Position numbers and translations under genes: made by a program
Shown here: piece after piece, positions 6,850 to 26,274 of the stretch
Numbering within the stretch: the first letter of the stretch is position 1
Layout of the letters: each line of letters begins with the position of its first letter
Notes under the pieces: generated by a model
The model's database searches: none
The model's input: only the letters and a program-made list of their open reading frames with translations
What the model was told of the DNA's origin: nothing
DNA from: a plasmid
DNA length: 64,000 nucleotides
Strand: one strand, 5' to 3'
Sequence record: NZ_CP082221.1

Positions 6850-6853
6850 AAAT

Positions 6854-8776: not shown

Positions 8777-8857
8777 TGTTCAGCTTTAAATAAGTCTTAT
8801 CAGTCTAGATAGGACTTAATTTTCATACTGGAGCTCTAAGGCTTAAGGTGTAGATAT

Positions 8858-9370: not shown

Positions 9371-9425
9371 TTATCTATTTTTTAGTAAAGAAAATTGAAG
9401 AGCCGAAGGGCTTATGGAGTTAGCT

Positions 9426-9755: not shown

Positions 9756-9791
9756 GTTTTTTCAATGAGCTTAATAGCTTGAGGAGTTCAC

Positions 9792-10520: not shown

Positions 10521-10524
10521 GAGC

Positions 10525-10710
10525 ATGAATACTAATAAGATAATGTTTTGTATTTGTCTGTTCGTTCTTGGCCTAGTAACACTATTCTCCATTTGGCTAG
10601 GCTATACAATCGTAATCCAGGCATCAACAGGCGCGGTTCCTTATCCGGGAAGAATGGTAATTATATTAATTATCCTGGGCGCTATAACCATGTTCCTTTT
10701 AAAGGGTTAA
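10525..10710 (+). CDS. small 2-TM peptide (61 aa)
   Basis: Starts 5 nt after the 9792 gene stop. Hydrophobic. Confidence 0.45.
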   Translation: MNTNKIMFCICLFVLGLVTLFSIWLGYTIVIQASTGAVPYPGRMVIILIILGAITMFLLKG

Positions 10711-10754
10711 AGAAATACAAATTTTACTGAGCTGAAGAGCTTAAGGTGATACTG

Positions 10755-11308
10755 ATGAAAAATATCCCTCTAATATTTGCCCTGGTATTAGCTTTATCCG
10801 GGTGCATGAGTGACGAAGATTTTGCTTTTGCAAAAGAAGAAATTGTAGAAAAACTATCAATACGTACCTTCAAGATCAATATTCGATGATTGTAATAAGC
10901 GACATAAAAAATGTAACTCCATCGATATATAGTACTTGTAGTAAATATTTGAATATTAATAAAAGGATGATCAAGAAACAGAGGGTTAAATTATCTATCA
11001 GAAGTATCGAGTCTGAATATGTTTTAGATAAAGATGTGAATATTAATGATCTCAAATCATGTGTTGACGATTATTTGGTAAAAACCCCAATTTCAGAAGA
11101 GTCAATGAAAAATCTGAAAGAGGATACAAGAGTTGAGCAATTCAAAAATGATCCTGAAGTACGTTCGTTAATTGATAACGCTAAAGCTGATCATTTAATC
11201 AGCTATTATGAATACCAGACAATACTTGGACTAGTGTTGAAGAAACATTACGACCATGAAATTGATTTGGGTAAAGCTGCATACCAACATGACTTTCAAA
11301 GTCTTTAA
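10755..11308 (+). pseudogene. frameshifted lipoprotein gene, paralog of the 11358 gene (signal-peptide part 10755-10889, remainder 10886-11308)
   Basis: Motif-B leader then MKNIPLIFALVLALSGC. The reading frame switches (-1) at the A5 run around 10846-10852. Both halves align to the 11358 paralog (KEEIVEK / INTYLQDQYS ... LKSCVDDYL). Confidence 0.45.
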
Positions 11309-11357
11309 AAGTAGCTTATCAGAGCATTAAAGAGCTGAAGAGCTTTAGGAGAATTTG

Positions 11358-11894
11358 ATGAAAAAACTAGCTGTAATGATCGCCATTGCTTCGATATTAT
11401 CTGGTTGTATGACAAAAGATAGTCTTAATACCTTAAAAAAATTGGTTGTAGAAAAAGAAATAAAAGATTATGTAGCAAGCAATTATCCGATTGAGTCGCT
11501 AGAAATTGATCAATTAAGTTCAGAAATTTACGATAATTGCATGGATGTAATTAATATCAGTCAACTTTCGCTTGTTAAAATTGAATTAAATAAGGAAACA
11601 AGGTATGTCTTGAAATCAAGTGTAGATACACAACCATTAAAAAAATGTGTAGATAATTATTTAGCAAAAAAACCTGTCTCAAACGATGCAATGGAAGCTC
11701 TAATTTCGAATCCTTATTATGAAAAATACAAGAATGAACCTGACGTAAGAGAAATAATTAATAAAGCAAAGATAGACAATCTTATAACCTATCATGAGCA
11801 AAAGGAAATACTTGATTTAGTTAGAAATAAACGTCTCAATCAAGCTCTAGCCGAAAACAAAATTTGGTATCAGAAACAAATTCATGATCTTTAG
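11358..11894 (+). CDS. lipoprotein (ILSGC lipobox), intact paralog of 10755/10886
   Basis: Motif B GAGCTGAAGAGCTTTAGGAG upstream. Signal peptide plus lipobox. Confidence 0.6.
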   Translation: MKKLAVMIAIASILSGCMTKDSLNTLKKLVVEKEIKDYVASNYPIESLEIDQLSSEIYDNCMDVINISQLSLVKIELNKETRYVLKSSVDTQPLKKCVDNYLAKKPVSNDAMEALISNPYYEKYKNEPDVREIINKAKIDNLITYHEQKEILDLVRNKRLNQALAENKIWYQKQIHDL

Positions 11895-11951
11895 TGTGTG
11901 GTAATTAGCCAGGTGTCTTCACAATAATTTAATATCTGTTGGAAATATTTT

Positions 11952-12374
11952 GGCGTTCCCTACGGGCCGGGCTAGTTGGCTTCGCTCGAACTCCAAGCGA
12001 AAAAGAGGATCCATCGAGTTTAAAATCTAGTTTCATGCAAAGCCTGAACCTGATTTTAATACTCGATTCAAATCCTCTTTTTTTACGCTTGTATTTCGCC
12101 CCTTACGGGCAACATCCCTAACGCAGCATGATCGGATGCTGTTTATCTTTAAAATTGAATCTAGGGGCAATTAGAGCGATTTAGAGGGCTATTTGTCGCA
12201 ACCCTGCGGGATTGCTTTGTTATTACCGGATAAGGTCCAATGGGAGAAGTTTCACTTCTTCGGTCGTCTAGTCAAAATCACAGATTTTGACTGACTCGCT
12301 CGAAGTTTGAAACGGTAATCAAGGAGGGGGATGCTCGCAAATTTCATCAGTTCGCAACGTGGACACGTTGCTCT
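11952..12374. repeat. 423-bp GC-rich noncoding repeat element, copy 1
   Basis: Near-identical to 16890-17310, with a 3-bp indel. About 48% GC versus about 33% for the flanks. Multiple perfect hairpins (GTCAAAATCacagGATTTTGAC, GCAACGTGgaCACGTTGC). Confidence 0.8.
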
Positions 12375-12395
12375 ATGATAAACGTGCAAAACAAA

Positions 12396-12421
12396 AAGAG
12401 GTTGTGTTAACACAACCTCTT
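12396..12421. terminator. bidirectional palindromic terminator AAGAGGTTGTGttaaCACAACCTCTT
   Basis: Perfect 11-bp stem flanked by A/T runs on both strands. Sits just after the higA stop on the minus strand. Confidence 0.5.
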
Positions 12422-12430
12422 AGGTCTATC

Positions 12431-12730
12431 TTAAATAGATATAGCAACATGCTTTCCGTTAGGTAACTCAACATCTAACCTTACTTTGCCACCCATAGCT
12501 TCAACATATTCTTTTAATGATGAAATCTTAAGATCTTTACCTAATTTTTCACGTTTTGAAATAGCAGCTTGGCTTACACCTAGATTTTTTGCAATTTCAG
12601 CTTGAGATATTTTTAACTCTTCCCGTAGGTTCGATAGGTTAATATCCAATAGCATTTGATTTGCCATTTTCTTGATGCGTTGTTGGCTTTCAGGTGAGCG
12701 TTTTGAAATTATATCGTTTAATTTAGCCAT
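12431..12730 (-). CDS. higA: XRE-family HTH antitoxin (HigA-like)
   Basis: 99 aa with an HTH (LGVSQAAISKRE). Follows the toxin gene with a 1-nt overlap. Confidence 0.75.
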   Translation of the reverse strand: MAKLNDIISKRSPESQQRIKKMANQMLLDINLSNLREELKISQAEIAKNLGVSQAAISKREKLGKDLKISSLKEYVEAMGGKVRLDVELPNGKHVAISI

Positions 12731-13089
12731 TATTTATCTCCGTAATTATCACGTAAATATTGCTCATATTGTTCATCTGCAATCTTGATCATTTCTTTAT
12801 AAAAGGCTTTTTCATTTAGCCCTTTCTTATCTCCAGCACACAAAACAATGGCTTTACGTTCTGGATCAAATGCAAAGAAACCACGGATCGGATGACCTTT
12901 AACTTGCACACGTATCTCTTTCATGTTCGGATATTTTGATTCTTTAATAGTATCAACATGAGGCCGGCCTAGATTTGGCCCCAGTTCTGACAAAACAAGC
13001 AAAGACGCTAAGATTTTATCTTGAGCATTTTCATCTTGTTCTGCCAACCAAGAATCAAAAAGTTCTGTTGTTTCTACATCCCAAGCCAT
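12730..13089 (-). CDS. higB: RelE/HigB-family addiction-module toxin
   Basis: 119 aa. Toxin-first order is typical of higBA. The family call rests on overall resemblance. Confidence 0.65.
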   Translation of the reverse strand: MAWDVETTELFDSWLAEQDENAQDKILASLLVLSELGPNLGRPHVDTIKESKYPNMKEIRVQVKGHPIRGFFAFDPERKAIVLCAGDKKGLNEKAFYKEMIKIADEQYEQYLRDNYGDK

Positions 13090-13119
13090 TACAAATCATC
13101 ATAAAGTTGATACTTTATT

Positions 13120-13166
13120 TTATAACCTTTAGGTTATATTTGCAAGCATAACCTTTAGGTTATATT
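13120..13166 (-). promoter_or_regulatory. candidate higBA operator: two copies of ATAACCTTTAGGTTATATTT, each containing the palindrome TAACCtttAGGTTA
   Basis: Direct repeat with internal inverted repeat read at 13123-13136 and 13149-13162, just upstream of higB. Confidence 0.4.
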
Positions 13167-13289
13167 TATGTTTAAGTATTTGTTTATATTGCGTTAATAA
13201 ATTTGTAAGTGGTCGAGAATGTGTTATAATTTAAAGGTGAAATCGGATAGGCTGGTTTCAAATGAGCAGAAATGCTTAAGGTGAATATT

Positions 13290-13856
13290 ATGAAAAAAGC
13301 AACTCTTATAACTAACAATCTAGGCCATCTAGTTTGTTCAGACTCACTAATTTTCAAGTCCAAACTTACAGGCAAAACAATTTACTTATCACCCTCTCAT
13401 TTATCGGCACGAATTTTTGAAAAAAACTCAAAAAAGCTAAAATGGGAATATTTTAATTGCTGGTCTGATGGGCTGAATCTGGTAAAAGAAATATTTAATA
13501 AAGAGCTTATAGAAAAAGAGAAAACTACCGCATTCAAAGAAAAACTTATTCCAGGTTCAATTCTTGTTTCTAGCTGGGGATCAGAACAAACAAACGTAAG
13601 TTTTTATCAAGTAATTTCATCTACTGCAAAGACTGTAACACTTCGGGAGATTGAAAAATATCGTTTTGAAGAAGACATGAGAGGATGGGTTACTCCAAAA
13701 CCGAATGAATTTATAGGGCCAGCATTTAGAAAGAAAATAGAGTCTGAATATGTTCAGATTGGAAATCGTGAAATTGCTAGATTATTAAAATTTACGGTCA
13801 TAGATGAAACTGGAACAAAAGTTTATGAGCGTCAAAAATTCACTAGCTACGCTTAA
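13290..13856 (+). CDS. hypothetical protein (188 aa)
   Basis: Full cassette: -10 TATAAT 13225-13230, motif A 13239-13259, motif B 13265-13284, ATG 13290. Confidence 0.55.
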   Translation: MKKATLITNNLGHLVCSDSLIFKSKLTGKTIYLSPSHLSARIFEKNSKKLKWEYFNCWSDGLNLVKEIFNKELIEKEKTTAFKEKLIPGSILVSSWGSEQTNVSFYQVISSTAKTVTLREIEKYRFEEDMRGWVTPKPNEFIGPAFRKKIESEYVQIGNREIARLLKFTVIDETGTKVYERQKFTSYA

Positions 13857-13904
13857 GACATATATTTTAGCCGTTGCGGATCCGCAACGGCTACGGAGGT
13901 AAAT

Positions 13905-14087
13905 ATGGACCGCGAACACTTCATGGATTTTTTCAGAAATGATGAAAAACTTGAACAACTAACACCAGATGATCGGATAGAAATTTTTTTGAACGTTTTA
14001 CTAGGCAGTAGTGATATAGATGTAAAACTTCTAAATGAACTTTTAAACAATTATGATATTAGAAATATCGTAATTAGTGAAAAATAA
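13905..14087 (+). CDS. small hypothetical protein (60 aa)
   Basis: GGAGG SD 7 nt upstream. Preceded by the extended palindrome 13870-13891. Confidence 0.4.
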   Translation: MDREHFMDFFRNDEKLEQLTPDDRIEIFLNVLLGSSDIDVKLLNELLNNYDIRNIVISEK

Positions 14088-14153
14088 TCAAATATGAATG
14101 AATCGGATAGGCTGATTCTATTAATATTGAGCTGATAAGCTTAAGGTGAGTTA

Positions 14154-14852
14154 ATGAAATACTTTATAGCAAATTTATATTTTTATACCCGTAAAGAGCT
14201 TCTAGCAATTGCTGATGGAAAAGATGAGCTTGTTGATTTTCTAGATAGAATAAAAGGTTCTGAGTTAGAAAGCGCGAAACTTACAAGTGCAGAACGTGCA
14301 TTTTTGAATGTTTATCAATCTGCTGTGTCAAATACTTTGGAGATGATGAACATTGATGTATCTACATCTAGCTGGATGATTGGCAATGGTTTTTACGTCC
14401 CTTCTATGGTTGAAGATTATAACAAAACAAATATTTCTATTTTAGAAGTAGTACTGTTTTGTAATATCACAGCATTAAAAACATTGATCAAAACTGATAC
14501 TGCAATAATCGAAACAAGGTTTGTTGAGTTTCTAATTAAGTACGTTGAAAAAATAGAATCGGTACATTGCTCAGATGATAAAATTTTTAAATTAGAACTA
14601 GGAAATAAGTATGAGTTTGAGTTACATCAGGAAGGATACATTTTCGTAGAAAGAATTTCAGATGATGAAATTTTTAATGAACAATTTCTAGATTCAGAAA
14701 TTTTGATAAGTTTGCTGTATGCGAAAGAAAATGAGAATGAGATTATTCCAGTAGGTACTTTTCACAGTGTCTCAGGGGTATATGATGCACTTGATTTTAA
14801 AAGTGCTATTAAACCTCTTTTACCAGATATTGAGTTGCTGGCATCTTTCTAA
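14154..14852 (+). CDS. hypothetical protein (232 aa), paralog of the 15441 gene
   Basis: Motif A (14100-14118) and motif B upstream. Aligns with 15441 (GNGFYVPS.../NGFFFPVN...; ELGNKYEFELHQEGYIF/IGNKLEFDLQTEGYVF). Confidence 0.6.
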   Translation: MKYFIANLYFYTRKELLAIADGKDELVDFLDRIKGSELESAKLTSAERAFLNVYQSAVSNTLEMMNIDVSTSSWMIGNGFYVPSMVEDYNKTNISILEVVLFCNITALKTLIKTDTAIIETRFVEFLIKYVEKIESVHCSDDKIFKLELGNKYEFELHQEGYIFVERISDDEIFNEQFLDSEILISLLYAKENENEIIPVGTFHSVSGVYDALDFKSAIKPLLPDIELLASF

Positions 14853-14854
14853 AC

Positions 14855-14884
14855 AAACGGGCAATAATGCCCGTTTTTTTTTTA
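14855..14884 (+). terminator. rho-independent terminator AAACGGGCAataaTGCCCGTTT + T10
   Basis: Perfect stem plus a long T-run. Confidence 0.65.
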
Positions 14885-14990
14885 AATTAAATTTATATTA
14901 AAACAAAAATATGTTTTTGATGTATAATAATTAAAGGAAGTTGGATAGGCTAACTTCAAAATTTGAGCTGAAAAGCTTATGGTGATTAAT

Positions 14991-15374
14991 ATGAAAGACA
15001 ATAATCTAAAAGATTTATTCCAGTTCCTCTTAAACCATAAAAAACTCATCCAGTGTGGGATTACAGTTAGTCAGGGCAGCTACTCAATTACCGATCTTAA
15101 TGAAGGTGTTTGTGTTTTGGTTGAACGAAATGTTCCATTCAAAGAATATTTATCTTTTCTAGAAATTATGGATAAATGGCCTGAGAAAAATAATGATCAA
15201 GGTTATACAGTTAGAATTGAAGGCGAGGATCCCTCAGAGATATACCTTGACTATTATGAGAATAACAAAAACATGTATGGCAATTGTTCATATGGCAAGA
15301 AACGATGGGATCTGATTTTATTTGTCTATCAAGAACTATTGGAAGCAAAGGAAGTCAGCTATTTAGAGGCTTGA
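14991..15374 (+). CDS. hypothetical protein (127 aa)
   Basis: Cassette: TATAAT 14923-14928, covarying motif A GAAGTTGGATAGGCTAACTTC 14937-14957, motif B, ATG 14991. Confidence 0.55.
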   Translation: MKDNNLKDLFQFLLNHKKLIQCGITVSQGSYSITDLNEGVCVLVERNVPFKEYLSFLEIMDKWPEKNNDQGYTVRIEGEDPSEIYLDYYENNKNMYGNCSYGKKRWDLILFVYQELLEAKEVSYLEA

Positions 15375-15440
15375 ATAAAGCAAAAGCAAAACCCTTTTTG
15401 AAACTTTTTAACATGAGCTGAAGAGCTTAAGGTGGCATAA

Positions 15441-16199
15441 ATGAACTTACAAGACTTAATTAGCGAAAATGAATTTTTTATCAGGAATCTTAATGTAGCT
15501 CAGTATGACAGGCTGGATGAGTTGACAAATTTAGATGAATATAAATCTGAATTTTTGGACAAAATTAGAAAACTCAATTTTGGCAGTAATGAAAACAGAC
15601 TTTTGCAAATTTTAGCGCAAGACGTTTTTGAGGAAGTTTACGAATACTGTGTATATCAAACCTTTGTAGAATGTTGCATGAATACAAAATGGATGACTGC
15701 AAATGGTTTTTTCTTTCCAGTTAATTTTGATCTAAACGAAAAATATTATGAAGATCCAGAAGCGGGATATGTGATAAATACATTCGATGTGATCATTAGT
15801 GCAAATCTCCATGCAATATACCAAGTAAGACATAATGGAAAGGTATATTTTGATGAACATCAAGAAGAGATTCTACAGTTTTGGGCTGACTACCTTATCG
15901 ATATTTTACGTCGAAATAAGCGTCAGGCAGACAAGTTTATTATAGGTAATAAACTAGAATTTGATCTTCAAACTGAAGGGTATGTATTTCCGTTAGATAT
16001 GGATGAAGATACATTTTATCAAACATTTAACGAAGCAGAAATTAACTTCTATATCCTTCAGCAGAGTGGAAAAGACTACAAGATAGAGAAGTTTACTAAC
16101 ACGTACAATAACGGTGGAGCAGAAGAAAGTAAGATGGCTTTTGAATGTTTCTTAAAGTTCTATCCATACACAGACTTAACTTTAATAGCCAATTTTTAA
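15441..16199 (+). CDS. hypothetical protein (252 aa), paralog of 14154
   Basis: Motif B GAGCTGAAGAGCTTAAGGTG upstream. Confidence 0.6.
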   Translation: MNLQDLISENEFFIRNLNVAQYDRLDELTNLDEYKSEFLDKIRKLNFGSNENRLLQILAQDVFEEVYEYCVYQTFVECCMNTKWMTANGFFFPVNFDLNEKYYEDPEAGYVINTFDVIISANLHAIYQVRHNGKVYFDEHQEEILQFWADYLIDILRRNKRQADKFIIGNKLEFDLQTEGYVFPLDMDEDTFYQTFNEAEINFYILQQSGKDYKIEKFTNTYNNGGAEESKMAFECFLKFYPYTDLTLIANF

Positions 16200-16250
16200 A
16201 CTTAAGGGGCTTCCCAACGGAGGCCCTATTTATTTAACAAAGGTGAAAGT

Positions 16251-16586
16251 ATGAAAGACCTAAATGTACATGAAAATATTGACGAAATTGGTGTCAGAGC
16301 TGCTCAATTATCTTCGTTTATAGTTGTATTAACAGGAGCAGCAATAATCTGTATAAGCGCAACTAAAACGAAAGCTGGATTAAGTGTCGTTATGAAAGAT
16401 CTGTTCCCATCTAATATATATGTATTAGTTGCTTTAATGGTGATGAGCTTTATCTTATGTACTTTTTCATTATTGAAAAATAATAAAGATAAGCATGTTT
16501 CATTTATTAAAGAGTTCTTTCGGCACATTGGTATACAAAGTGGAGCAATAATTATCATATTTGGTTTACTTTCAAGAATTTTATAA
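16251..16586 (+). CDS. membrane protein (111 aa, 3 TM)
   Basis: AAGGTG SD. Hydrophobic. Confidence 0.5.
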   Translation: MKDLNVHENIDEIGVRAAQLSSFIVVLTGAAIICISATKTKAGLSVVMKDLFPSNIYVLVALMVMSFILCTFSLLKNNKDKHVSFIKEFFRHIGIQSGAIIIIFGLLSRIL

Positions 16587-16889
16587 AGATAAAATCTAAA
16601 AAAGGGTAACTATAACGTGATAAAAAATTTCAAATTTATAGCTGTAATTAGATCTAATGGTGCGGATCCGCAACCATGAGGATTTAGATATGAAAATTAC
16701 AAACAGAAGAAGAAGTGAGATTAGAAAAAATTTATGGAAATGGTGTTCTATTTGCATAATTTTTTTAAGTTTAATCATCATTTTTTTTAGTTTGAAAGTG
16801 GATATTTTCGGAGTTATTTAATGGATCTGATTATGATGTTTGTTGGGTTTTGTGCTTTTGTTTTATGGATTATTCATGGTGTAAAATAG

Positions 16890-17310
16890 GGCGTTCCCTA
16901 CGGGCCGGGCTAGTTGGCTTCGCTCGAACTCCAAGCGAAAAAGAGGATCCATCGAGTTTAAAATCTAGTTTCATGCAAAGCCTGAACCTGATTTTAATAC
17001 TCGATTCAAATCCTCTTTTTTTACGCTTGTATTTCGCCCCTTACGGGCAACATCCCTAACGCAGCATGATCGTGCTGTTTATCTTTAAAATTGAATCTAG
17101 GGGCAATTAGAGCGATTTAGAGGGCTATTTGTCGCAACCCTGCGGGATTGCTTTGTTATTACCGGATAAGGTCCAATGGGAGAAGTTTCACTTCTTCGGT
17201 CGTCTAGTCAAAATCACAGATTTTGACTGACTCGCTCGAAGTTTGAAACGGTAATCAAGGAGGGGGATGCTCGCAAATTTCATCAGTTCGCAACGTGGAC
17301 ACGTTGCTCT
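16890..17310. repeat. 423-bp GC-rich noncoding repeat element, copy 2
   Basis: See copy 1. Confidence 0.8.
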
Positions 17311-17450
17311 GCAAATGTATTTTATAATACGAAAAATTACACTAAATATATGTTTTTTCTTAATAAAAAGACATGAAAATGTAGTATAATTAAGGGGTGA
17401 AATCGGATAGGCTGGTTTCTATATATGAGCTGAAAAGCTTAAGGTGTACT

Positions 17451-17765
17451 ATGAAAATTTATACAAAAATTGCCCTTAATTACTTCAGAAATTTAATTTC
17501 TGCATGTGGAAAAGAACATGGGATATTTTTCTCAGAATCACCACAAAATCCAAAACATTTAGTAGCCAATGACGCTATTTATTTCATTACTCAAATTGAT
17601 GACTCAATTGTATTTATTGATTGTAAATATGGTCCAGTTTCAACTTATCGGATAGATGGAATTTTAGATTTTACATCTAATTCTATAGAGGATGCCGCTC
17701 AAATTGCTACTAATAATTTTCGTCTAATCTGTGAAAATCATTACACTATCTTGAATTGTGAATAA
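17451..17765 (+). CDS. hypothetical protein (104 aa)
   Basis: Cassette: TATAAT 17385-17390, motif A 17399-17419, motif B 17427-17446, ATG 17451. The track start 17397 lies in the leader. Confidence 0.5.
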   Translation: MKIYTKIALNYFRNLISACGKEHGIFFSESPQNPKHLVANDAIYFITQIDDSIVFIDCKYGPVSTYRIDGILDFTSNSIEDAAQIATNNFRLICENHYTILNCE

Positions 17766-17800
17766 TAAAAATTTGAGCTGTAAAGCTTATGGAGATCAAA

Positions 17801-18298
17801 ATGAAAAAATGGTTTAGTTCTGATGTAAACAACGTTGATGATTTAAAGAATGAATACCGAAAACTTTGCTTTAAACATCATCCAGACATGGGCGGCTCGA
17901 CTGAAGATATGCAAGCCATAAATTCAGAATATGAGCAGCTTTTAAAAGTTCTAATTAATACAAAGGCAGACAGTAACTATTCAGAGAAATCTACTTTTAA
18001 AAACCGAGATGAAGAAATTGATGCAGAAATTCGTTTGAGAGAAGTTCTAGAAAAGTTAGAAATCTTGGAAGGGTTAGAGATTGAGAGAATAGGACTATGG
18101 TTATATGTTTCAGGCAATACAAAAGCGCATAAGGAAGCATTAAAAGAGGCTGGTTTAAAATGGGCACATGCTAGAAAACTTTGGATATATGTTGGTACAG
18201 AATGCAGAGGACGAGGAAACAAAGATATGGACGAGCTTAGAGCAAAATACGGAAATGAAAAGGTAAAAACTAGAAGCAAAATTAAGAAAATTGCTTAA
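17801..18298 (+). CDS. J-domain (DnaJ-like) protein
   Basis: YRKLCFKHHPDMGG carries the HPD motif. No Zn-finger or C-terminal DnaJ domains. Motif B upstream. Confidence 0.7.
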   Translation: MKKWFSSDVNNVDDLKNEYRKLCFKHHPDMGGSTEDMQAINSEYEQLLKVLINTKADSNYSEKSTFKNRDEEIDAEIRLREVLEKLEILEGLEIERIGLWLYVSGNTKAHKEALKEAGLKWAHARKLWIYVGTECRGRGNKDMDELRAKYGNEKVKTRSKIKKIA

Positions 18299-18310
18299 CT
18301 ATTTTCTACA

Positions 18311-18341
18311 AAAAAAAGCCGACATAATCGGCTTTTTTTTA
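18311..18341 (+). terminator. rho-independent terminator (AAAAAAAAGCCGAcataaTCGGCTTTTTTTT)
   Basis: Perfect hairpin plus T-run. Confidence 0.65.
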
Positions 18342-18443
18342 CTTAAAATGTATAATTTCAACAACATAAATGATATAATTTATTTGTGAAATCGGATAGG
18401 CTGATTTCGAATTTTTGAGCTGAAAAGCTTATGGAGTTTTAAG

Positions 18444-18728
18444 ATGTATGCAATAGTTGATTCAAATATGAATGTCATTGATGCTTCGATTTGTAAAATT
18501 AAATTAGAATATAAATTGGCTGATAAATTGTTTTGGATAGCTCACAATTTTGGTCGTCAAGCTGAAGGAGTTAAGCAAGATGAATTTGAAATAGATGAAC
18601 TAAGTGATCCAGAAGTATGCAATGCTATTCACATGGCTTATCAAAATGCTTTTGACTATAAGAAGAATGAAATTAGTGATAGTTATAAAATCGTAAAATG
18701 GGATAGTAAACAGGCAATTTGGATTTAA
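18444..18728 (+). CDS. hypothetical protein (94 aa)
   Basis: Complete cassette: TATAAT 18374-18379, motif A 18388-18408, motif B, ATG 18444. Confidence 0.5.
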   Translation: MYAIVDSNMNVIDASICKIKLEYKLADKLFWIAHNFGRQAEGVKQDEFEIDELSDPEVCNAIHMAYQNAFDYKKNEISDSYKIVKWDSKQAIWI

Positions 18729-18740
18729 TTTTGAAACAAA

Positions 18741-18770
18741 AAAAAAGCCGTGAATAACGGCTTTTTTTTG
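18741..18770 (+). terminator. rho-independent terminator (GCCGTgaataACGGC + T8)
   Basis: Hairpin plus T-run. Confidence 0.65.
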
Positions 18771-18873
18771 TTTCAAAGTGATTGAATAAATTAAGGAAAA
18801 TGTTATAATTTAATCAAGAAATCGGATAGGCTGATTTCTATTTTTTGAGCTGAAAAGCTTATGGAGTTTACAA

Positions 18874-19206
18874 ATGATTAAATCAAATAATATGATCGAC
18901 ATTAAAAATCTTATCAATGAATTTCGCAATGAAACTTTATTGGAAAAAGAGAAAGTCTTTATTGATGGTAAAGACAAAAAAAGCGTTATTACTGGTTCTA
19001 AAATTTTAACTCTAGCACTTACTAAAGAGAATATTATTTATACTATTTATCATATAGAAGTATGCCGTGATGAGGAAGGCAAAACTGTCAAACGTTATAA
19101 AATCCATCAAAGAAAATCTTTAGGTTTTTCAATTCCACTTAGCTTTTTGGTAAAGCGTGAATTTGAAAAAGCTGCACCAGAAACTTTAATAAATGCTTTA
19201 ATTTGA
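18874..19206 (+). CDS. hypothetical protein (110 aa)
   Basis: Cassette: TATAAT 18804-18809, motif A 18818-18838, motif B, ATG 18874. Confidence 0.5.
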   Translation: MIKSNNMIDIKNLINEFRNETLLEKEKVFIDGKDKKSVITGSKILTLALTKENIIYTIYHIEVCRDEEGKTVKRYKIHQRKSLGFSIPLSFLVKREFEKAAPETLINALI

Positions 19207-19221
19207 TTAGGAGTAGATTCA

Positions 19222-19416
19222 ATGATTGCTCATCGAATTAATGATTCAACTGAAGAACTAAAACTTGAAGTTTTAAAAAGTGCAGCAGGTTTTTACATTG
19301 GAACTTTTGATTATGATTCTGATAATTATGGTCCTGTTAGCCGTGTATCGGAATACTTCAAGACCAGTGAGGAAGCAGAATATGCATTAAAGAATAATTG
19401 CTGGACACTACGTTAA
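19222..19416 (+). CDS. small hypothetical protein (64 aa)
   Basis: AGGAG SD. Coupled to the 18874 gene. Confidence 0.45.
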   Translation: MIAHRINDSTEELKLEVLKSAAGFYIGTFDYDSDNYGPVSRVSEYFKTSEEAEYALKNNCWTLR

Positions 19417-19448
19417 AAAAAAGCTGGCTTTAAGCCAGCTTTTTTTTA
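19415..19448. terminator. bidirectional terminator AAAAAAAAGCTGGCTttaAGCCAGCTTTTTTTT
   Basis: Perfect stem flanked by A8/T8. Lies between convergent genes. Confidence 0.65.
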
Positions 19449-19775
19449 TCCTAATAAAATCTTTTTAATATCGTCCATATGTTTTTTCCAAACTTTTGGA
19501 GATATTTCAAGAAGCTTATTTCTATCTAAAAGTTTAAACAAATCATCTTTTACTTTTAATTTTGCTTGTTCAACTTCTTGAGCAATTTGTTCATCAAGTA
19601 GTTCTAATTCCCTTTTCATTTGCTCTTTTCGTTGAGCTAATTTTTTGCCTTTCGGCGATAAATAATCTGCAATATTACCTGATTCATCTTTTGCTTTTGT
19701 TTCATTTGAATTTGTATTGGCTGCATCATTTTCAGCCTTAACAGATTCGTCATTTGTTTGAGCAACATTATTCAT
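19446..19775 (-). CDS. Lys/Glu-rich coiled-coil protein (109 aa)
   Basis: ORF with an acidic N-terminus and KR/E-rich helix, adjacent to the candidate oriT. Confidence 0.5.
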   Translation of the reverse strand: MNNVAQTNDESVKAENDAANTNSNETKAKDESGNIADYLSPKGKKLAQRKEQMKRELELLDEQIAQEVEQAKLKVKDDLFKLLDRNKLLEISPKVWKKHMDDIKKILLG

Positions 19776-19899
19776 ATTTACACCATCTCAAATTTTAACT
19801 AGCAAACAAAACTTCTTTGTTTGGGGACAACTACATACTAAATATTTTCACCAATCTAGCAACAGAATTTTTTTAAAAAACTTAAGATTGATTAAATGA

Positions 19900-19960
19900 T
19901 GCGGGACACCCCGCTCATTTTTTTTCTCACACACCACGCACCTAACGGTGCTTTTAGCTC
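19900..19960 (-). other. oriT: candidate oriT (nic region on minus strand)
   Basis: The minus strand reads ...GCACCgttaGGTGC GTGGTGTGTGAG... This is an inverted repeat followed by a GGTGCGTGGTGTG-like core, resembling R388/F nic regions. An upstream IR GCGGGacacCCCGC (19901-19914) is also present. It lies immediately beside the RHH/TraD/TrwC genes. Confidence 0.5.
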
Positions 19961-20271
19961 AAGCCTTTATGGTGCAAGGTTTTGAGTGGATAAAACACTA
20001 GGTAAATATGGTTAACTTTTATGATCTATAAACTGTTATATGTTATTAATATATAAAAAGAAATAGGTGTTAACTTTCATTTTATTTAAAGTTAACCAAT
20101 AAACCCATAAAAACAATGTAAGAACATGTTTTTAAATAATATATATGGAGTAACCGACTTTATTTTATAAAAACAGAAAGTTTTTGATTTATGTTATTGA
20201 AATATATGTAAAAACTATAGTTACACAACTATTTTGAACATAAAAATATAAATATTTCCAAAAGAACTAAA

Positions 20272-20823
20272 ATGAAATTTAAAAAAATGCATCAAAGTGC
20301 TACAATTTTTTCATCTTTTGTTTATCCACAGCTCTTGAGGAGTGTCAAACTCATGACCCAAAAGAAAGTTTCAATTGGAGGTAAGGTTAGCCCTGAAATT
20401 AAGAAATACTATGATGATATGGCTAATAGATTAGGAATCTCTACAAGTCAGTTACTTGAAAAAATCTTAATTGAAAACCTTACATTATCTAAAGTCCAAA
20501 TCTTAATTGATGACTTTGACAACAAAGTCAATTATATGGTCGAGCTTATCAATCAGAGTTTTACGAACCAATCTCATTTTATTGATGAAAAATTTGATAT
20601 CTCAAATTCTAGTTTAGCTAAGTTGATTTATGAAAACGGTTTGAATAAACAAACTGAAGAGTTCATTGCTACTTTAACTTTCTTGGAAGCTGCTAAATAT
20701 AAAAATCTGCCATTAGTTAAAGACTTTAATAAACGCGAAACCACTGGTGAAGCTCTCTTTTTACAAGCATCAAAAGAAGCTAGAGAGTCAGTTGCTAAAC
20801 GTCGTAATCAATCAGAGGCTTAA
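20272..20823 (+). CDS. putative ribbon-helix-helix relaxosome accessory protein
   Basis: N-terminal KKVSIGGKVSPEIKKYYDDMANRLGISTSQLL resembles TraY/TrwA-type RHH. Sits upstream of traD. Confidence 0.4.
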   Translation: MKFKKMHQSATIFSSFVYPQLLRSVKLMTQKKVSIGGKVSPEIKKYYDDMANRLGISTSQLLEKILIENLTLSKVQILIDDFDNKVNYMVELINQSFTNQSHFIDEKFDISNSSLAKLIYENGLNKQTEEFIATLTFLEAAKYKNLPLVKDFNKRETTGEALFLQASKEARESVAKRRNQSEA

Positions 20824-20827: not shown

Positions 20828-22987
20828 ATGAAAGCAAAGAATAACTCAAAAGCAATCGAATTTACGAGAGGTTCTGAAATATGGATTCATCAATTTCGAA
20901 TGTTTATTTCAAGCATGATGAATGTCATAGTTTTTGGCCTGATGATTACGATTGGCATTGTATGTGCATTTCTATACATTAAATTAAAGGATGTTCATTT
21001 TCTTGCTTTAAGTGTGCAATACGATATTTGGTTAAAGTCAGTATTTAATAATCCAGATGCGAGAGTAGCATTGAAGCTAAATGGTGTTGTACGTGATTAC
21101 ACTCTTGATCAAGCTCAGCACATTATTAATCCCTATTTTAACCAATTAAAGTTTTATGTTTTTCGAGCATTTATTTTAGGTATTCTTTTAAGCTCATTTC
21201 TAGTCGGTGGTCTTATTTATTACTGGTTTACTTATGGTAAGGAAGTAATGTCTGATGAACAAATTCGTGGTTCAGAACTAGTTTCTAATGACGCATTAAT
21301 TTATAAAATCCAAAGTACGAAAGGATTCAGTCCATATAAAATTTCTAACATACCTATGGTAAAAAATACAGAAGGTACGAATGTTGGTATTTTTGGTGCT
21401 CCTGGTTCTGGTAAGTCTCAAATTTTTAGAGATCATTTATCTCAGGTTAGAAGCAATAAAAGAAAAGCTATCGTTTATGATCCTTCAGGAGAATTCACTT
21501 CAGAATTTTATCGACCAGGTATAGATATTATTCTAAATCCATTTGATGAACGTATGCCGTATTGGTCACCATTTTTTGAAATTCGTCATGATGAGCATTT
21601 CGATAGTATTGCTAATGCTTTTGTTCCAGTTGAGGGTAAAGATCCTTATTTTGGCGAAGCTGGTAGAACAGTATTAGCTGAAGTCATGCGTGAATTACAT
21701 GCTAATGGTATACACTCAAATAAGACTCTCCATGACACAATTGCACATTTTACTATTGAAGAAATATCGTCTGTGCTTGAGGGAACGGCTGCTTCAAAGC
21801 ATGTTGATAAAAAAGCTGAAAAGACGGCACTGGCTGTTCTTACAACAGTACAAAATAAATTAAGAGCATTTCGCTATTTACCAGATTCCGGTACACAGTT
21901 TTCTATACGTGATTGGGTAAGTCGGCCTGAAGAAGACTCATGGATTTTCCTTTCGCTTAGAGAAGAACAGAAAACTACTATTGAACCACTTATTACGTTG
22001 TGGTTTTCAATATTCATTAAAGCCGTAATGAACTTAGAACCAATACATCGTGAACTATTATGGATGTATTGTGATGAGTTCCCAACTCTACCAAAAATGG
22101 ATGATTTACCTTTATCTCTTACAAATACTCGTAAATTCGGTTTATGTCATTTTTTAGGACTACAAGATATTCCTCAACTTGAAGAAAAGTACGGAGAAAA
22201 AATTGCTCGTTCAATAATTTCAGCTTTACAAACGAAAGTGTTCTATCGAGTTAATGAAAATGAAACTGCGAAAAGAATGTCTGAAATTCTTGGACAGATG
22301 GAAGTTGCTGAAAAAAATATGTCTAGAAGTATGGGGGTTAATGATTCAAGAGACGGTGATAGTTTTATTACTCAAAGGAGAGAACGCTTTATTGTTTTAC
22401 CATCTGAAATTATGAAGTTGCCAGATCTAACAGGATACTTAAGAGTTCCTGGTGATTATCCAGTTACGAAGATTACTCAGAAATATCATCCTCACTTAAA
22501 AAATGTTCCAGCATTTATAGAACGAGAAAATATGGGTTTCATTTCTGCGTTTGCGGTTGCTGAAGCTTTAGAATCCCAATCGAATTCTGATGGAAAAGAG
22601 CCATTAGTAGAACAACAAAATGAAGAAGGCAATTTCTTTGGGAATTCTACTGAGCCACTTGTTGGAAATAGTAGTTTCTTTGGGAAATCTAATACAACCT
22701 CTGAAATTATTTATGAAAATTCACCTTTAGATTTATTTCATTCTCAAACAGAAGATAGTGATTTATCACTTAATGAAAAAAACGGTATTCAACCAGATGA
22801 AATAATCCCGGACGAAGATGAAAAGCCTAAAGTTGTTAATAATGACAGACTACATACTTTTGCCAGCTATCTTGCCGCAACCGATGAATCAAGTGCTCAG
22901 AAAAATAATGACGTTACTCCTGACACTAATTCAAGTAATGATTCTAATGAATCTAGTTTTAAAGACTTGTTCAATAACAATGATTAG
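20828..22987 (+). CDS. traD: type IV coupling protein TraD (F-type)
   Basis: Walker A GAPGSGKS. Long collinear similarity to F TraD (IVYDPSGEF...ILNPFD; LPDLTGYLRVPGDYPVTKITQKY). Confidence 0.9.
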   Translation: MKAKNNSKAIEFTRGSEIWIHQFRMFISSMMNVIVFGLMITIGIVCAFLYIKLKDVHFLALSVQYDIWLKSVFNNPDARVALKLNGVVRDYTLDQAQHIINPYFNQLKFYVFRAFILGILLSSFLVGGLIYYWFTYGKEVMSDEQIRGSELVSNDALIYKIQSTKGFSPYKISNIPMVKNTEGTNVGIFGAPGSGKSQIFRDHLSQVRSNKRKAIVYDPSGEFTSEFYRPGIDIILNPFDERMPYWSPFFEIRHDEHFDSIANAFVPVEGKDPYFGEAGRTVLAEVMRELHANGIHSNKTLHDTIAHFTIEEISSVLEGTAASKHVDKKAEKTALAVLTTVQNKLRAFRYLPDSGTQFSIRDWVSRPEEDSWIFLSLREEQKTTIEPLITLWFSIFIKAVMNLEPIHRELLWMYCDEFPTLPKMDDLPLSLTNTRKFGLCHFLGLQDIPQLEEKYGEKIARSIISALQTKVFYRVNENETAKRMSEILGQMEVAEKNMSRSMGVNDSRDGDSFITQRRERFIVLPSEIMKLPDLTGYLRVPGDYPVTKITQKYHPHLKNVPAFIERENMGFISAFAVAEALESQSNSDGKEPLVEQQNEEGNFFGNSTEPLVGNSSFFGKSNTTSEIIYENSPLDLFHSQTEDSDLSLNEKNGIQPDEIIPDEDEKPKVVNNDRLHTFASYLAATDESSAQKNNDVTPDTNSSNDSNESSFKDLFNNND

Positions 22988-22998: not shown

Positions 22999-25900
22999 AT
23001 GCTAAGTGTTAACAATGTAGTTGAATCTGGAAAGGCTTTGTCTTACTACCAATTAGATAATTATTATACTAATGAGCAACAATCATTGGATCAAACTGAA
23101 TGGTATGGTCGTGGTGCTCAAGTATTAGGTATTAATGGTGAACAAATTGAGGCAAATACTTTTAAAGACTTGCTAGAAGGTAGAGTAGAAGATCAACAGT
23201 TGGGGCGAGTTAGGAAAGATGAAAATGGTCAAAGTTATATTGATCATAGAGCTGGTATAGATTTAACGTTTAGTGCTCCAAAATCTGTTTCGATAATGGC
23301 AGAGGTTTTTGAAAATCAAGATGTGCTACAAGCACATCTTGATGCTGTTAAAGATACTATTTCCGCTATTGAAGATCATTACACGCAAACTAGAATCAGT
23401 GTTGATGGCACAATTCAAAAATCAGAGAGTGATAATTTAGTTGTTGCTCTTTTTAATCACAATACTAGTAGAGCATTGGATCCGCAAACTCATACACATG
23501 CAGTTGTTATGAACATGACTTTAAATGATAAAGATTCATGGACGGCATTAAGTAACGAAGTAATTTATGATAATCAGGCAACCATAGGTTCGATATATAA
23601 TTCTAATCTCGCTCAAAATTTAAGAGCTATAGGTCTTGATGTAGAGGTAAAAGATAATCAGGGCAATTTTGAAATTGCCGGCTTTACTCCAGAAATGATA
23701 CAAGAGTTTTCTCAGCGAAGAACTCAGATTATTGAAAGTTTAAAAAGTAGAGGAATTGATATTGAAGATGCACCTGCTAGTTTGAGAGAACAAGCAGCTT
23801 TAAAAACACGGGAAAGGAAACAGGCATTTAATGAGGCTGAATTACGTCAAGTTTGGAAGGAACGTGCAAGTGAACTTGGCATTACACAAAGTTTTGTAGA
23901 TAAGCTAGAAGATAAAATTAAAACGAATCAGATGAATGCGGATCCGCAACCTTCAGAAAAAAACCAAAAAGACATATGGAAAACCGGATCCTCAAAAAAT
24001 GATCCGAATATATCATTTGAAGGGAAAACGGAAGTTTCTAGCGATAAATCTAATAACGCTGATAAAGAAGCACCAGATAAACGAATTGACAACTCTGAAA
24101 CGCAAAATCCGAGCGATAGCGCCATATCAAATGAAAAAGCTAGTCAAGTATCAGGAAAATCCCAAAAAGAGCCAGAAACGCAAAATATGGGCCAAGAAGC
24201 GCATATTCAAGATGAAGTTAGATTGGGTAAGAAACAAACTGAACCTAAAGCGAGTAACAATTCAAAAGACCAGACTGTACCTAGAGAACGACCTTATCAA
24301 AGAAAGAATCGTGAATCTCAACAAGTACTCATAAGCCAAAAAACAAAAGAAGCCGTTTACTACGCTATAGGGCATCACACCGAAAGAGAAATGATGATAC
24401 CTGAAACAAAGATACTAAATACGGCTATGAAATTTGACATACAAGAAGTAACTCATGAACAAGTACGAGCTGAGTTAAATAGACTAGAAAAAGAAAAAAT
24501 CATCGTCCGGGTAGATGGGAAGTTAACAACTCAGCGTTTGGCACATAGCGAAGTTTGGTCGTTACAACATATACAAAATGAACAAAAAAGCGTGAGTCCA
24601 ATAGTGGATGAATCTCAAGTTAAAACAAGACTCGATCAAGAGGAACAGTTGAGAGGGAGGAAGTTTACACCCGGACAAAGAGCAAGTCTTGAAACAATAT
24701 TTAGTTCTGAAAGTAGATATATAGGCGTAGACGGTTTAGCTGGTACGGGTAAAACTACAATGCTGCATACTTTGAATAAAGTAGCCTCAGAAAACGGTTT
24801 TATTGTTAAAGGTATGGCCGCCACTGGCGTAGCTGCTAAAAACTTAGAATTGGAAACTGGTATACCCTCAAAAACAATGGCCATGTTTCAGATTAAAGAA
24901 AATGAGCTTCAGAAAGAAATTGAAAAGAATGGGGGAGTAAACCGTAAAAATGAAATCTGGATAGTTGATGAATCTTCATTTGTAAGCCAGACAAACTTCA
25001 AAGACATTTTGACTTTGGCTAAGCAAGCTAATAGTCGTGTTGTTTTTTTAGGGGATAAATTGCAGCTTCAGTCAATTAGTGCAGGAAAACCATTTGAACT
25101 TGTACAAAATAGAGGTGTGCTAAAAACTTCACAAATGCATGACATTATCCGTCAAAAAAACCAGGAACTTAAAGACGTGGTTTCTGTTGTCGTTGCAAAA
25201 AACAAAGAAGGTAAAATTGATTTAAGTAACAACGATAAAGCTTTTGATTTACTTGATAAACAGCAAAGGATTCATGAAGTAGTTGTAGCTGCAAAGGGTA
25301 CACAACCAGCTCTACATGAGCAGCATGACTTATTTCAGGAAATTCATGAAGTACATCAAAAATTAGTTGGTGATTATATGAGGCTTAATAAGGAATCAAG
25401 AGATAATAGCCTTATCATTACTCCCTTTAACTCAGATAGAGTAATGCTGAACTCACTTGTAAGAAGCGAAATGAAAAAACTAAATGAATTAGATCATAAT
25501 GATCATAATTTTGAGATCTTAGTAAATACCAATTTCACTGAAGCGGAGCGTAAACATATTAATAATTATGAGCCTAATATGACGATACGTTTTGGGAAAT
25601 CATTTACAGATAAAGACACAGGAATCAAAATTGAAAAAGGTGACTATCTAAAAGTAATGATGAAAGACAAAGAAGGTAAATTGGTATTAATTGATAAGGA
25701 TAAAAATAAAATTAAATGGAACCCTAAAAAAGGAAGTGTAGAAGTATATAAATCAGAACAAAGAAAGATAGCTAAGGGAGATGTAATAAGAATTACCCGG
25801 ACAAAAGATGATGAACAGATCAAGAATGGTGAAAGATATAAAATCAAGGATATTCATGAAGATAAAGTAATAGTAGAAGGCCAGGATGGGAAAGAGAAAA

Positions 25901-26274
25901 GCCTATCAAGAAGTGGGTTTAAACATTTTGATTACGGCTATAGTAGTACTGTTTATTCCTCTCAGGGCTTAACACAGGGTAATGTATTTTTGTTACTAAA
26001 TAGCCAAAAATTAGCAAATGATCTGAAAAGTGATAAGGCTGCCACCAAAGTTTTAGGTAATACATTTGGAACAAGATCATTTTATGTTGCTGTAACGAGG
26101 GAAGAGCATAATTTGCAGATTTACACTGATAATAAACAAATGACACGAGAAGCAATTACGTTTAAACAAGATAAAACAAGTTATTTGGATACAGTTAAAG
26201 AAGTTGGTCAAAAAGTACCAGAACATATCATCGAAAATGAAAAAATTGGTGTAACTAATGAGCTAGAAAGATAG
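22999..26274 (+). CDS. traI: MobF relaxase-helicase (TrwC/TraI family)
   Basis: N-terminal relaxase motifs (DLTFSAPKSVS; HTHAVV 3-His). C-terminal helicase Walker A GLAGTGKTT and a TraI-like tail. Confidence 0.9.
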   Translation: MLSVNNVVESGKALSYYQLDNYYTNEQQSLDQTEWYGRGAQVLGINGEQIEANTFKDLLEGRVEDQQLGRVRKDENGQSYIDHRAGIDLTFSAPKSVSIMAEVFENQDVLQAHLDAVKDTISAIEDHYTQTRISVDGTIQKSESDNLVVALFNHNTSRALDPQTHTHAVVMNMTLNDKDSWTALSNEVIYDNQATIGSIYNSNLAQNLRAIGLDVEVKDNQGNFEIAGFTPEMIQEFSQRRTQIIESLKSRGIDIEDAPASLREQAALKTRERKQAFNEAELRQVWKERASELGITQSFVDKLEDKIKTNQMNADPQPSEKNQKDIWKTGSSKNDPNISFEGKTEVSSDKSNNADKEAPDKRIDNSETQNPSDSAISNEKASQVSGKSQKEPETQNMGQEAHIQDEVRLGKKQTEPKASNNSKDQTVPRERPYQRKNRESQQVLISQKTKEAVYYAIGHHTEREMMIPETKILNTAMKFDIQEVTHEQVRAELNRLEKEKIIVRVDGKLTTQRLAHSEVWSLQHIQNEQKSVSPIVDESQVKTRLDQEEQLRGRKFTPGQRASLETIFSSESRYIGVDGLAGTGKTTMLHTLNKVASENGFIVKGMAATGVAAKNLELETGIPSKTMAMFQIKENELQKEIEKNGGVNRKNEIWIVDESSFVSQTNFKDILTLAKQANSRVVFLGDKLQLQSISAGKPFELVQNRGVLKTSQMHDIIRQKNQELKDVVSVVVAKNKEGKIDLSNNDKAFDLLDKQQRIHEVVVAAKGTQPALHEQHDLFQEIHEVHQKLVGDYMRLNKESRDNSLIITPFNSDRVMLNSLVRSEMKKLNELDHNDHNFEILVNTNFTEAERKHINNYEPNMTIRFGKSFTDKDTGIKIEKGDYLKVMMKDKEGKLVLIDKDKNKIKWNPKKGSVEVYKSEQRKIAKGDVIRITRTKDDEQIKNGERYKIKDIHEDKVIVEGQDGKEKSLSRSGFKHFDYGYSSTVYSSQGLTQGNVFLLLNSQKLANDLKSDKAATKVLGNTFGTRSFYVAVTREEHNLQIYTDNKQMTREAITFKQDKTSYLDTVKEVGQKVPEHIIENEKIGVTNELER

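Follow-up and report, generated by a model that had tools for sequence, protein, structure and literature searches.

Where does conjugative transfer of a RepAci6 plasmid begin, and which of its two strands enters the recipient? These questions are raised by a stretch of 64,000 nucleotides from the plasmid sequence record NZ_CP082221.1, which in its full length is called the window here. It represents a RepAci6/pACICU2-type conjugative plasmid of Acinetobacter baumannii that carries a MOBF relaxase and an F-type mating-pair formation (MPF) system. An earlier reading of the sequence (the original prediction) had proposed an origin of transfer (oriT) just upstream of a set of transfer genes. The segment from 19.90 to 20.10 kb is very probably the oriT of this MOBF/MPF-F conjugative plasmid, which is the best explanation of the segment as a whole, and the original prediction was largely right. 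The support comes from gene context, from a nic that is in register with those of known origins, and from conservation, covariation, and polarity.

The predicted nic region

The minus strand from 19951 to 19929 reads GCACC-GTTA-GGTGC-GTGGTGTGT and continues with GAGAAAAAAAA. The original prediction had described a GCACC/GGTGC repeat followed by a core, and this is what is found, with arms at 19947–19951 and 19938–19942 around a GTTA loop. Its longer minus-strand string, GAGCTAAAAGCACCGTTAGGTGCGTGGTGTGTGAGAAAAAAAA, is correct as a sequence; its span is ~19918–19960 (43 nt), wider than the 19925–19955 originally given. The nic sequences of R388 and F that the original prediction had cited for comparison were confirmed in NC_028464 and NC_002483, and both align in register with the window. 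The window core fits the pattern GCGT-N3-4-(G/T)T-N-T (GGTGCGTGGTGTGT^GA, compared with GGTGCGTATTGTCT^AT in R388 and TTTGCGTGGGGTGT^GG in F; the caret marks the nic). More broadly, R388 GCACCGAAAGGTGCGTATTGTCT^ATAG and window minus-strand GCACCGTTAGGTGCGTGGTGTGT^GAGA agree at 18 of 23 positions, and in both a hairpin is followed by a single-stranded stretch. The F nic region is GTTTTTGCGTGGGGTGT^GGTG; its core, GCGTGG.GTGT^G, differs little from the window core, and an inverted repeat (GCAAAAAC-TT-GTTTTTGC) lies 5' of the core, in parallel to the window. By register with R388 and F, the nic would fall between T19929 and G19928 of the minus strand. The motif shared with R388, GCACCNNNNGGTGCGTNNTGTNT, has one copy in the window and none in 100 shuffles, for a pattern chosen post hoc.

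How widely is this region conserved? The 3.6 kb around it match 203 PLSDB plasmids at 99% identity or more; almost all of these come from A. baumannii, and every one is typed as conjugative. More distant relatives were sought by tblastn on plasmids for the relaxase and by a DNA-pattern scan for the origin. In an alignment of the intergenic regions from the window, pARLG_6344_2, and pABTJ1, the sole conserved island is CCTTGCAC..AGGCTTGAGC..AAGCACCGTTAGGTGCGTGGTGTGTGA, and the remainder is unalignable AT-rich DNA. The core GTGGTGTGT is invariant in these three diverged conjugative lineages, whose relaxase N-domains are 54–71% identical. The spacer 3' of the nic is ~12 nt long in relatives, and is A-rich or T-rich according to lineage. 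On the other side of the hairpin, the sequence of the CCTT/AAGG repeat is mostly kept, with scant covariation and an alignment that is out of register there; no structural claim is made for it. A 96-nt query matched 571 plasmids, ~318 of them in the 32-nt nic region only, with ~90% identity. These ~318 are overwhelmingly small Acinetobacter plasmids typed as non-mobilizable. The pattern scan, in a set with one genome per species (genome_contigs), returned 39 loci. About 31 have the present origin and come from more than 20 Acinetobacter species, and the remaining loci resemble chance matches (a Nostoc gene, Pontibacter, Rhizobium, and an archaeon). A search of genome_contigs with the relaxase N-domain gave no match.

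Some occurrences lie, at least by label, outside Acinetobacter. Loci L021, L030, L032, L034, and L041 are labelled as a Pedobacter metagenome-assembled genome (MAG), a Clostridium MAG, Actinomadura, a Clostridiales MAG, and Nakamurella, and their oriT sequences equal those of Acinetobacter small plasmids or differ from them only slightly; contamination or mis-binning is the most likely source of the oriT in these contigs. A Moraxella bovis plasmid (L008, 4634–5043) has a hairpin and core of the form CCCAC-GATA-GTGGG-TGCGTATGGTGT, set in an R388-like module (stbA/stbB, a trwA-like gene, and genes for a type IV coupling protein (T4CP) and a MobF relaxase), and hence the same oriT design occurs in another member of the Moraxellaceae. 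In a Burkholderia plasmid with a 47% identical relaxase, the equivalent intergenic region holds no obvious matching nic motif.

Two hairpins and the strand on which they probably form

The original prediction had also noted a second inverted repeat, GCGGG-acac-CCCGC, and it lies exactly at 19901–19914. Read on the minus strand, this is the 3' hairpin, and the GCACC/GGTGC repeat is the 5' hairpin. Covariation was assessed in a set of 30 distinct related origin sequences. For the 3' hairpin, five of six pairs show compensatory changes and 93% of cells are paired; the stems include GCGGG/CCCGC, CTCGCC/GGCGAG, CCGGC/GCCGG, GCCGGT/ACCGGC, GTCATC/GATGAC, and TTCGGC/GCCGAA, and the loop is always NTGT. 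The 3' hairpin is a conserved structural part of the origin. The 5' hairpin has 82.7% of its cells paired, a single compensatory pair (C:G to T:A), and 13 T·G wobble cells. Both hairpins together have 88% of cells paired, compared with 30%–38% in a control with the partners slid, and both are independently predicted by RNAalifold. Folded as DNA, the minus strand reaches −20.4 kcal/mol (z = −4.3). On which strand do the hairpins form? Read on the minus strand, the two show 14 T·G wobble cells and 0 A·C, which argues that they form on that strand, the one that would be nicked.

Could the two GC-rich hairpins instead be tandem intrinsic terminators on the plus strand, serving the upstream genes, with the likeness to a nic region being coincidental? 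In a consensus scan, both are terminator-like on the plus strand (2 found versus 0.4 expected), the units being GCGGGACACCCCGC then TCATTTTTTT, and GCACCTAACGGTGC then TTTTAGCTCA. In most small-plasmid copies, too, an A-run precedes the 3' hairpin on the nicked strand, which is equivalent to a T-run after it on the complement. However, four lineages (L003, L004, L009, and L022) have a T-run on the nicked strand, such that the complement offers a hairpin with an A-run and no terminator. Since the hairpin is nonetheless kept in these lineages by compensatory changes, termination is probably not the conserved function. The T·G wobbles favor folding of the minus rather than the plus strand. Moreover, the most conserved part of the region is the single-stranded core between the hairpins, which terminators leave unexplained, and a conserved minus-strand gene (19446–19775) separates the last plus-strand gene from the hairpins. 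Terminators as the whole explanation are thus very unlikely, although a terminator role of the 3' hairpin in the present plasmid could coexist with a role in oriT.

A different question is whether the relaxase in fact cuts at another position or on the opposite strand. The NTGT loop of the 3' hairpin could be such a place, by analogy with the origins of rolling-circle Rep proteins. The invariant loop is similar to the GTGT^G nic core, and the nic position proposed here is set by alignment. However, the MOBF relaxases with mapped nic sites (R388 and F) cut 8–9 nt 3' of the repeat within a G(Y)GCGT...GT.T core. That core has an in-register counterpart in the window, whereas the loop of the 3' hairpin has no conserved GCGT flank. 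The core is also present in just one copy in the window. A nic at another place is extremely unlikely on this evidence, and the oriT with its nic at the core on the minus strand remains the preferred interpretation.

Repeat arrays phased to the nic

What lies between the nic region and the transfer genes? The base composition changes in steps across 19800–20300: the nic region is a GC island (36% at 19800–19999), and the 300 bp that follow have a GC content of ~20%. This AT-rich segment contains the three GTTAAC boxes of the original prediction, which had placed them at about 20010, 20067, and 20090; their exact starts are 20011, 20069, and 20091. As a hexamer, GTTAAC is no more frequent in the window than chance would give (11 found versus 15.9 expected). 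The exact 9-mer GTTAACTTT, counted on both strands, has three copies in 64 kb, two direct and one inverted, and all are within 20011–20096. By our own arithmetic, the chance of three sites falling within 86 bp is ~3 × (86/64000)^2, or roughly 5e-6. Boxes 1 and 3 make a perfect 11-nt inverted repeat (TGGTTAACTTT/AAAGTTAACCA).

Other lineages have different repeats here. In pARLG_6344_2, the repeat is TGTACA, with six of the seven copies in 16 kb located in the interval, and it is also TGTACA in pAB-G7-1 and pS32-1 (five of six copies in the interval). The repeat is AGCACA in an A. lwoffii contig, GTATAC in pABTJ1, CTGCGC in other small plasmids, and GATACC/GATAAC in an A. schindleri conjugative contig and, again, other small plasmids. 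The offsets of the repeats from the nic hairpin are kept across lineages, at ~58–61, 115–119, 127–129, 184–200, and 253–259 nt. The distance to the start of the accessory gene, by contrast, varies from 297 to 408 nt, and the arrays are therefore phased to the nic, not to the promoter. The TGTACA lineages have in common an accessory-protein N-terminal strand, TYA[LV]RL, that differs in the window (VSIGGKV) and in pABTJ1 (VPMGTRV).

To judge from these sequence patterns, the GTTAAC boxes fit binding sites for a co-evolving accessory protein. The original prediction had offered two candidates for the protein that binds them, a ribbon-helix-helix (RHH) accessory protein or IHF. The lineage-specific motifs at matching offsets favor the first. 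The second finds no support: the IHF consensus WATCAANNNNTTR has 19 matches in the window and none in 19800–20350, and the nearest IHF-like sequence to the origin, GCTCAAGCCTTTA at 19957–19969, has two mismatches (by eye).

It is also possible that the nic is real and that the boxes serve as promoter operators, bind a nucleoid protein of the host (IHF, for example), or are a repeat that arose by chance in AT-rich DNA. TrwA-type proteins autoregulate their operons in R388, which would suit an operator role. The boxes are located in 20% GC DNA, where short repeats are common and many weak ones are seen, and RepAci6 plasmids are reported, in the account cited below, to mobilise pS32-1, which has no GTTAAC box. 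Against this, the exact 9-mer is absent from the rest of the 64 kb, and eight other lineages put different repeats at nic-hairpin offsets similar to the 61 and 119 nt of boxes 1 and 2. The predicted promoter is 180–260 bp away from the boxes, and GTTAAC is unlike the IHF consensus. This alternative is unlikely, though it deserves more weight than the two discussed above, and operator and relaxosome roles can coexist. Sites for the accessory protein thus remain the favored interpretation of the boxes.

Beyond the boxes, RepAci6 plasmids and one small-plasmid group have in common a ~45-nt block (GTTTTTACATATATTTCAATA...TAAATCAAAAA) with 73%–82% identity (window 20107–20215 versus L001 1313–1421). 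It includes a minus-strand TTTACA hexamer and could act as a promoter or bind a further protein.

A small plasmid reported to be mobilised

Is there a related origin for which transfer has been reported? According to the account of Blackwell & Hall (2019) in PMC7315799, the small plasmid pS32-1 is mobilised by the RepAci6 plasmid pAb-G7-2, with the relaxase acting in trans, and a 32-bp sequence of pS32-1 matches the R388 oriT. Within the compass of that account, the work on pS32-1 has already made the oriT core sequence public, and the original prediction for the most part rediscovered it correctly. Three other aspects may be less fully described: the 3' hairpin with its covariation and NTGT loop, the lineage arrays in fixed phase, and the accessory genes of "non-mobilisable" plasmids.

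The 32-nt nic region of pS32-1 (NZ_MG954378) is identical to window positions 19950–19919 at 29 of 32 nt, and the pS32-1 origin is identical to that of pAB-G7-1 across 470 nt. By the published account, mobilisation has in effect been put to the test with a close copy of the window origin. Like the window, pS32-1 has the CCTT/AAGG block upstream, a hairpin with a GCGTGGTGTGT core, a 3' hairpin with an NTGT loop, and, in divergent orientation, a gene homologous to the accessory gene (30% identity over 76 aa). There are also differences. The 5' stem is CATC/GATG rather than GCACC/GGTGC, having lost its outer pair and changed one pair in a compensatory way; the 3' hairpin is CCGGC/GCCGG, unlike that of the window; and the repeats are TGTACA rather than GTTAAC, as in the conjugative pARLG_6344_2. 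Finally, pS32-1 lacks a relaxase and a coupling protein. Since pS32-1 is mobilised without GTTAAC boxes, as far as the published account goes, these boxes are dispensable for relaxase action on a related nic region. pS32-1 does, however, have an accessory gene and a TGTACA array of its own, and the protein encoded by this gene shares 47% identity with its pARLG_6344_2 counterpart and 30% with the window protein.

A TrwA-like accessory protein of 123–129 aa, encoded divergently from the oriT copy, is found on several small plasmids typed as "non-mobilizable": pAB-G7-1 (L002, 768–1139), pS32-1 (L051, 1107–1478), and also L011, L012, L039, and L046. Because these plasmids encode their own accessory protein, they would borrow only the relaxase, the coupling protein, and the type IV secretion system (T4SS). 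Another set with the same nic region (L001, L017, L019, L030, L036, L037, L044, L047, and L048) has an open reading frame (ORF) of 63–71 aa located ~430–640 nt from the hairpin. This ORF carries two CxxC motifs (FPxPCxxCES...CxxCQ) and is probably a zinc ribbon; in L036, it adjoins a second repeat array, six copies of AGTTCTCA.

The accessory protein

The gene between oriT and the coupling-protein gene is transcribed away from oriT and encodes the candidate accessory protein. It most likely begins at ATG 20353 rather than at the ORF start at 20272; a GAGGAG Shine-Dalgarno sequence at 20337–20342 and the PGAP call in an identical plasmid back this start. A gene holds the same position in pABTJ1, pARLG_6344_2, the Burkholderia plasmid, the Moraxella plasmid, and R388. 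Homologues of the window protein were found in Acinetobacter only. With HHalign, the accessory family matches TrwA at 74% probability with a six-sequence profile and at 88% (E 3e-6) with a nine-sequence profile, over TrwA residues 5–41. A profile search of the PDB returned noise (haemagglutinin coiled coils), with the RHH antitoxin 3H87 below threshold (E 0.12). The original prediction had called this an RHH gene adjoining oriT. Its position is as described, and the profile comparison makes an RHH fold probable.

What weighs against the assignment

Several observations count against an oriT at this position, or against parts of the description given above. First, an ungapped scan with the R388 29-mer gives 18/29 here, tied with sites elsewhere, and the mean best score in shuffles is 18.07. 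Because 18/29 equals the shuffle expectation, the resemblance to R388 alone is not statistically decisive, and Hamming scans of the window with an F 22-mer and 14-mer did not single out the nic site either. The evidential weight comes from conservation, the small-plasmid copies, covariation, and position, and not from raw similarity to R388. Second, the invariance of the 18-nt core in the genome_contigs set is built into the search pattern. Third, the sole compensatory pair of the 5' hairpin could be a single evolutionary event. Fourth, the window has three boxes only, with the third at an offset of 141 nt rather than ~128 nt, and pS32-1, in the account cited above, is mobilised by RepAci6 plasmids although it has none. 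Fifth, the accessory protein has no significant Pfam match, its relatives have only sub-threshold NikA-like and CopG matches, and its AlphaFold2 model has a predicted local distance difference test (pLDDT) score of 44.7, which is unusable as evidence for a fold; the layout of this low-confidence model (coil at 1–13, helices at 14–27 and 31–41) is compatible with an RHH protein. Sixth, no leading-region markers (ssb, psiB, or ardA) were recognised upstream, where ten ORFs have no informative Pfam match.

Gene neighborhood and comparison with R388 and F

On the plus strand, the gene order leading away from oriT is accessory gene, coupling-protein gene, relaxase gene (Table 1). The original prediction had named traD and a MobF relaxase gene downstream of the origin, and the domain scores of the two proteins bear this out. 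The catalytic motifs of the relaxase are intact: the SYY and DNYY tyrosines and the His triad motif HNTSRALDPQTHTH align with TrwC. Its N-domain is 71% identical to that of pABTJ1, 54% to that of pARLG_6344_2, ~47% to those of Burkholderia plasmids, and ~36%–37% to those of F TraI and R388 TrwC.

Table 1. Positions in the window of the origin and of the features around it (caret, nic)
Feature	Position	Strand	Remark
Conserved 109-aa ORF, divergent from accessory gene	19446..19775	-	30–39% identity in two other conjugative lineages
3' hairpin GCGGG-GTGT-CCCGC	19901..19914	-	~12–14 nt past nic, across A/T-rich spacer
A/T-rich spacer GAGAAAAAAAATGA, first nt of transferred strand past nic	19915..19928	-	14 nt here
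Predicted nic 5'-GGTGCGTGGTGTGT^GAGA-3'	19928..19929	-	register with R388 GGTGCGTATTGTCT^ATAG and F TTTGCGTGGGGTGT^GG
Single-stranded recognition core GTGGTGTGT between hairpin and nic	19929..19937	-	unique in window
Nic-proximal inverted repeat GCACC-GTTA-GGTGC	19938..19951	-	5-bp stem, 4-nt loop; counterpart of R388 IR2
Conserved upstream block CTCAAAACCTTGCACCATAAAGGCTTGAGC with CCTT/AAGG inverted repeat	19957..19986	-	28–57 bp from nic, position of F's IHF site
GTTAACTTT box 1	20011..20019	+	61 nt from nic hairpin
GTTAACTTT box 2, direct repeat	20069..20077	+	119 nt from nic hairpin
GTTAACTTT box 3, inverted	20088..20096	-	offset 141 nt from nic hairpin
Promoter-like site for accessory, T4CP, and relaxase genes	20278..20306	+	TTTAAA-17-TACAAT, upstream TG; consensus match only
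Relaxosome accessory protein, 156 aa, TrwA-like N-terminus	20353..20823	+	probable RHH
Type IV coupling protein (TraD/TrwB-like)	20828..22987	+	TrwB_AAD_bind domain E 6e-114
MobF relaxase-helicase, 1091 aa (TrwC domain + AAA_30 helicase)	22999..26274	+	TrwC E 1.5e-81

How does this module compare with those of the two classical MOBF plasmids? Like the window, R388 has the order accessory gene, T4CP gene, relaxase gene, transcribed away from oriT, and a relaxase that combines the TrwC domain with one helicase and has the same catalytic motifs. The RHH region of R388 TrwA aligns with the N-terminus of the window accessory protein. There are several differences, however. The N-domain of TrwC is only ~36% identical to that of the window relaxase; the mating-pair system of R388 is T-type and that of the window F-type; the window has no stbABC next to oriT and no IHF consensus at its origin; and its accessory protein has 156 aa, compared with 121 aa for TrwA, and is unrelated past the N-terminus.

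An F-type T4SS is common to F and the window. In F, a GC-rich repeat (GGTGGT-GAGA-ACCACC) a few nt 3' of the nic parallels the hairpin at 19901–19914. F has an IHF site at +23 to +60, followed from ~61 bp by three RHH TraY units, two direct and one inverted (PMC12117103). The window has a conserved block at +28 to +57, followed from 82 bp by two direct boxes and one inverted box, a layout that is reminiscent of F by analogy, although the window boxes are spaced 58 and 22 bp apart whereas the TraY units are contiguous. The two plasmids also differ in the relaxase, which in the window is of TrwC size and has no counterpart of the extra vestigial helicase of F TraI, and in the accessory genes, with a single gene adjoining the T4CP and relaxase genes in the window and traM/traY heading a long tra operon in F.

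Polarity of transfer

Which side of the plasmid leads? As in R388 and F, the nicked strand runs antisense to the genes for DNA processing, and the inverted repeat lies between these genes and the nic. If the minus strand is the one nicked, the DNA below position 19928 would be the first to enter the recipient. Of the ORFs of at least 80 aa at 98–19416, nearly all are on the plus strand, including ParA/ParB, a TelA-like protein, and a J-domain protein, the only exception being a RelE/HTH toxin-antitoxin pair at 12431–13089. Since these upstream ORFs are on the plus strand, the transferred strand would be their template, as it is for ssb and neighboring genes in R388. The original choice of the minus strand for the nic is thus supported both by the wobble pattern of the hairpins and by the orientation of the upstream ORFs, nearly all of which point toward oriT as R388 leading genes do.

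The gene closest to the nic on this side would be the first into the recipient. It encodes the 109-aa protein, whose N-terminus is of low complexity and whose C-terminal part contains the conserved motif LLxxxxKVWK. The protein is present in three conjugative lineages. This ORF has no Pfam match. Homology to R388 StbA was considered and rejected, there being no similarity.

A model for initiation

How might these elements work together? In R388, TrwC binds IR2 and 8 nt. By comparison with R388, the MobF relaxase would recognise the minus strand, binding the GCACC-GTTA-GGTGC hairpin and the adjoining GTGGTGTGT. It would then cut between T19929 and G19928 and stay on the 5' G. The minus strand would be transferred 5' to 3', with the DNA below 19928 going first and the accessory, coupling-protein, and relaxase genes last. 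Together with the 5' hairpin, the 3' hairpin most likely helps to expose the A/T-rich nic region as a single strand, and it may mark the 5' end of the transferred strand. The TrwA-like protein most likely binds the three GTTAACTTT boxes; it would assemble the relaxosome and probably autoregulate its operon.

Functional implications

What would such an origin mean for Acinetobacter plasmids? One possibility, which is tentative and on balance doubtful, is that Acinetobacter MOBF origins are modular, combining a near-invariant nic core (in at least eight lineages of conjugative and small plasmids) with lineage-specific "address" arrays and a functional 3' hairpin. The arrays (GTTAAC, TGTACA, AGCACA, CTGCGC, or GATACC) would be in fixed phase from the nic (~60, 117, 128, 186, 198, and 256 nt) and would be read by co-evolving TrwA-like proteins, which many plasmids typed as "non-mobilizable" encode for themselves. 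The 3' hairpin might serve as a second relaxase contact in termination or recircularisation, or in strand loading. If true and undescribed, this modular system would define which helper mobilises which small Acinetobacter plasmid.

RepAci6 plasmids are major carriers of blaOXA-23 and aphA6 in A. baumannii. First, the oriT and its polarity tell which genes would reach the recipient first. Second, hundreds of small, relaxase-less plasmids typed as "non-mobilizable" can spread, because they have the same nic region. Third, the comparative anatomy of these origins could predict the specificity between helper and passenger plasmids and could improve the mobility typing of Acinetobacter plasmids.

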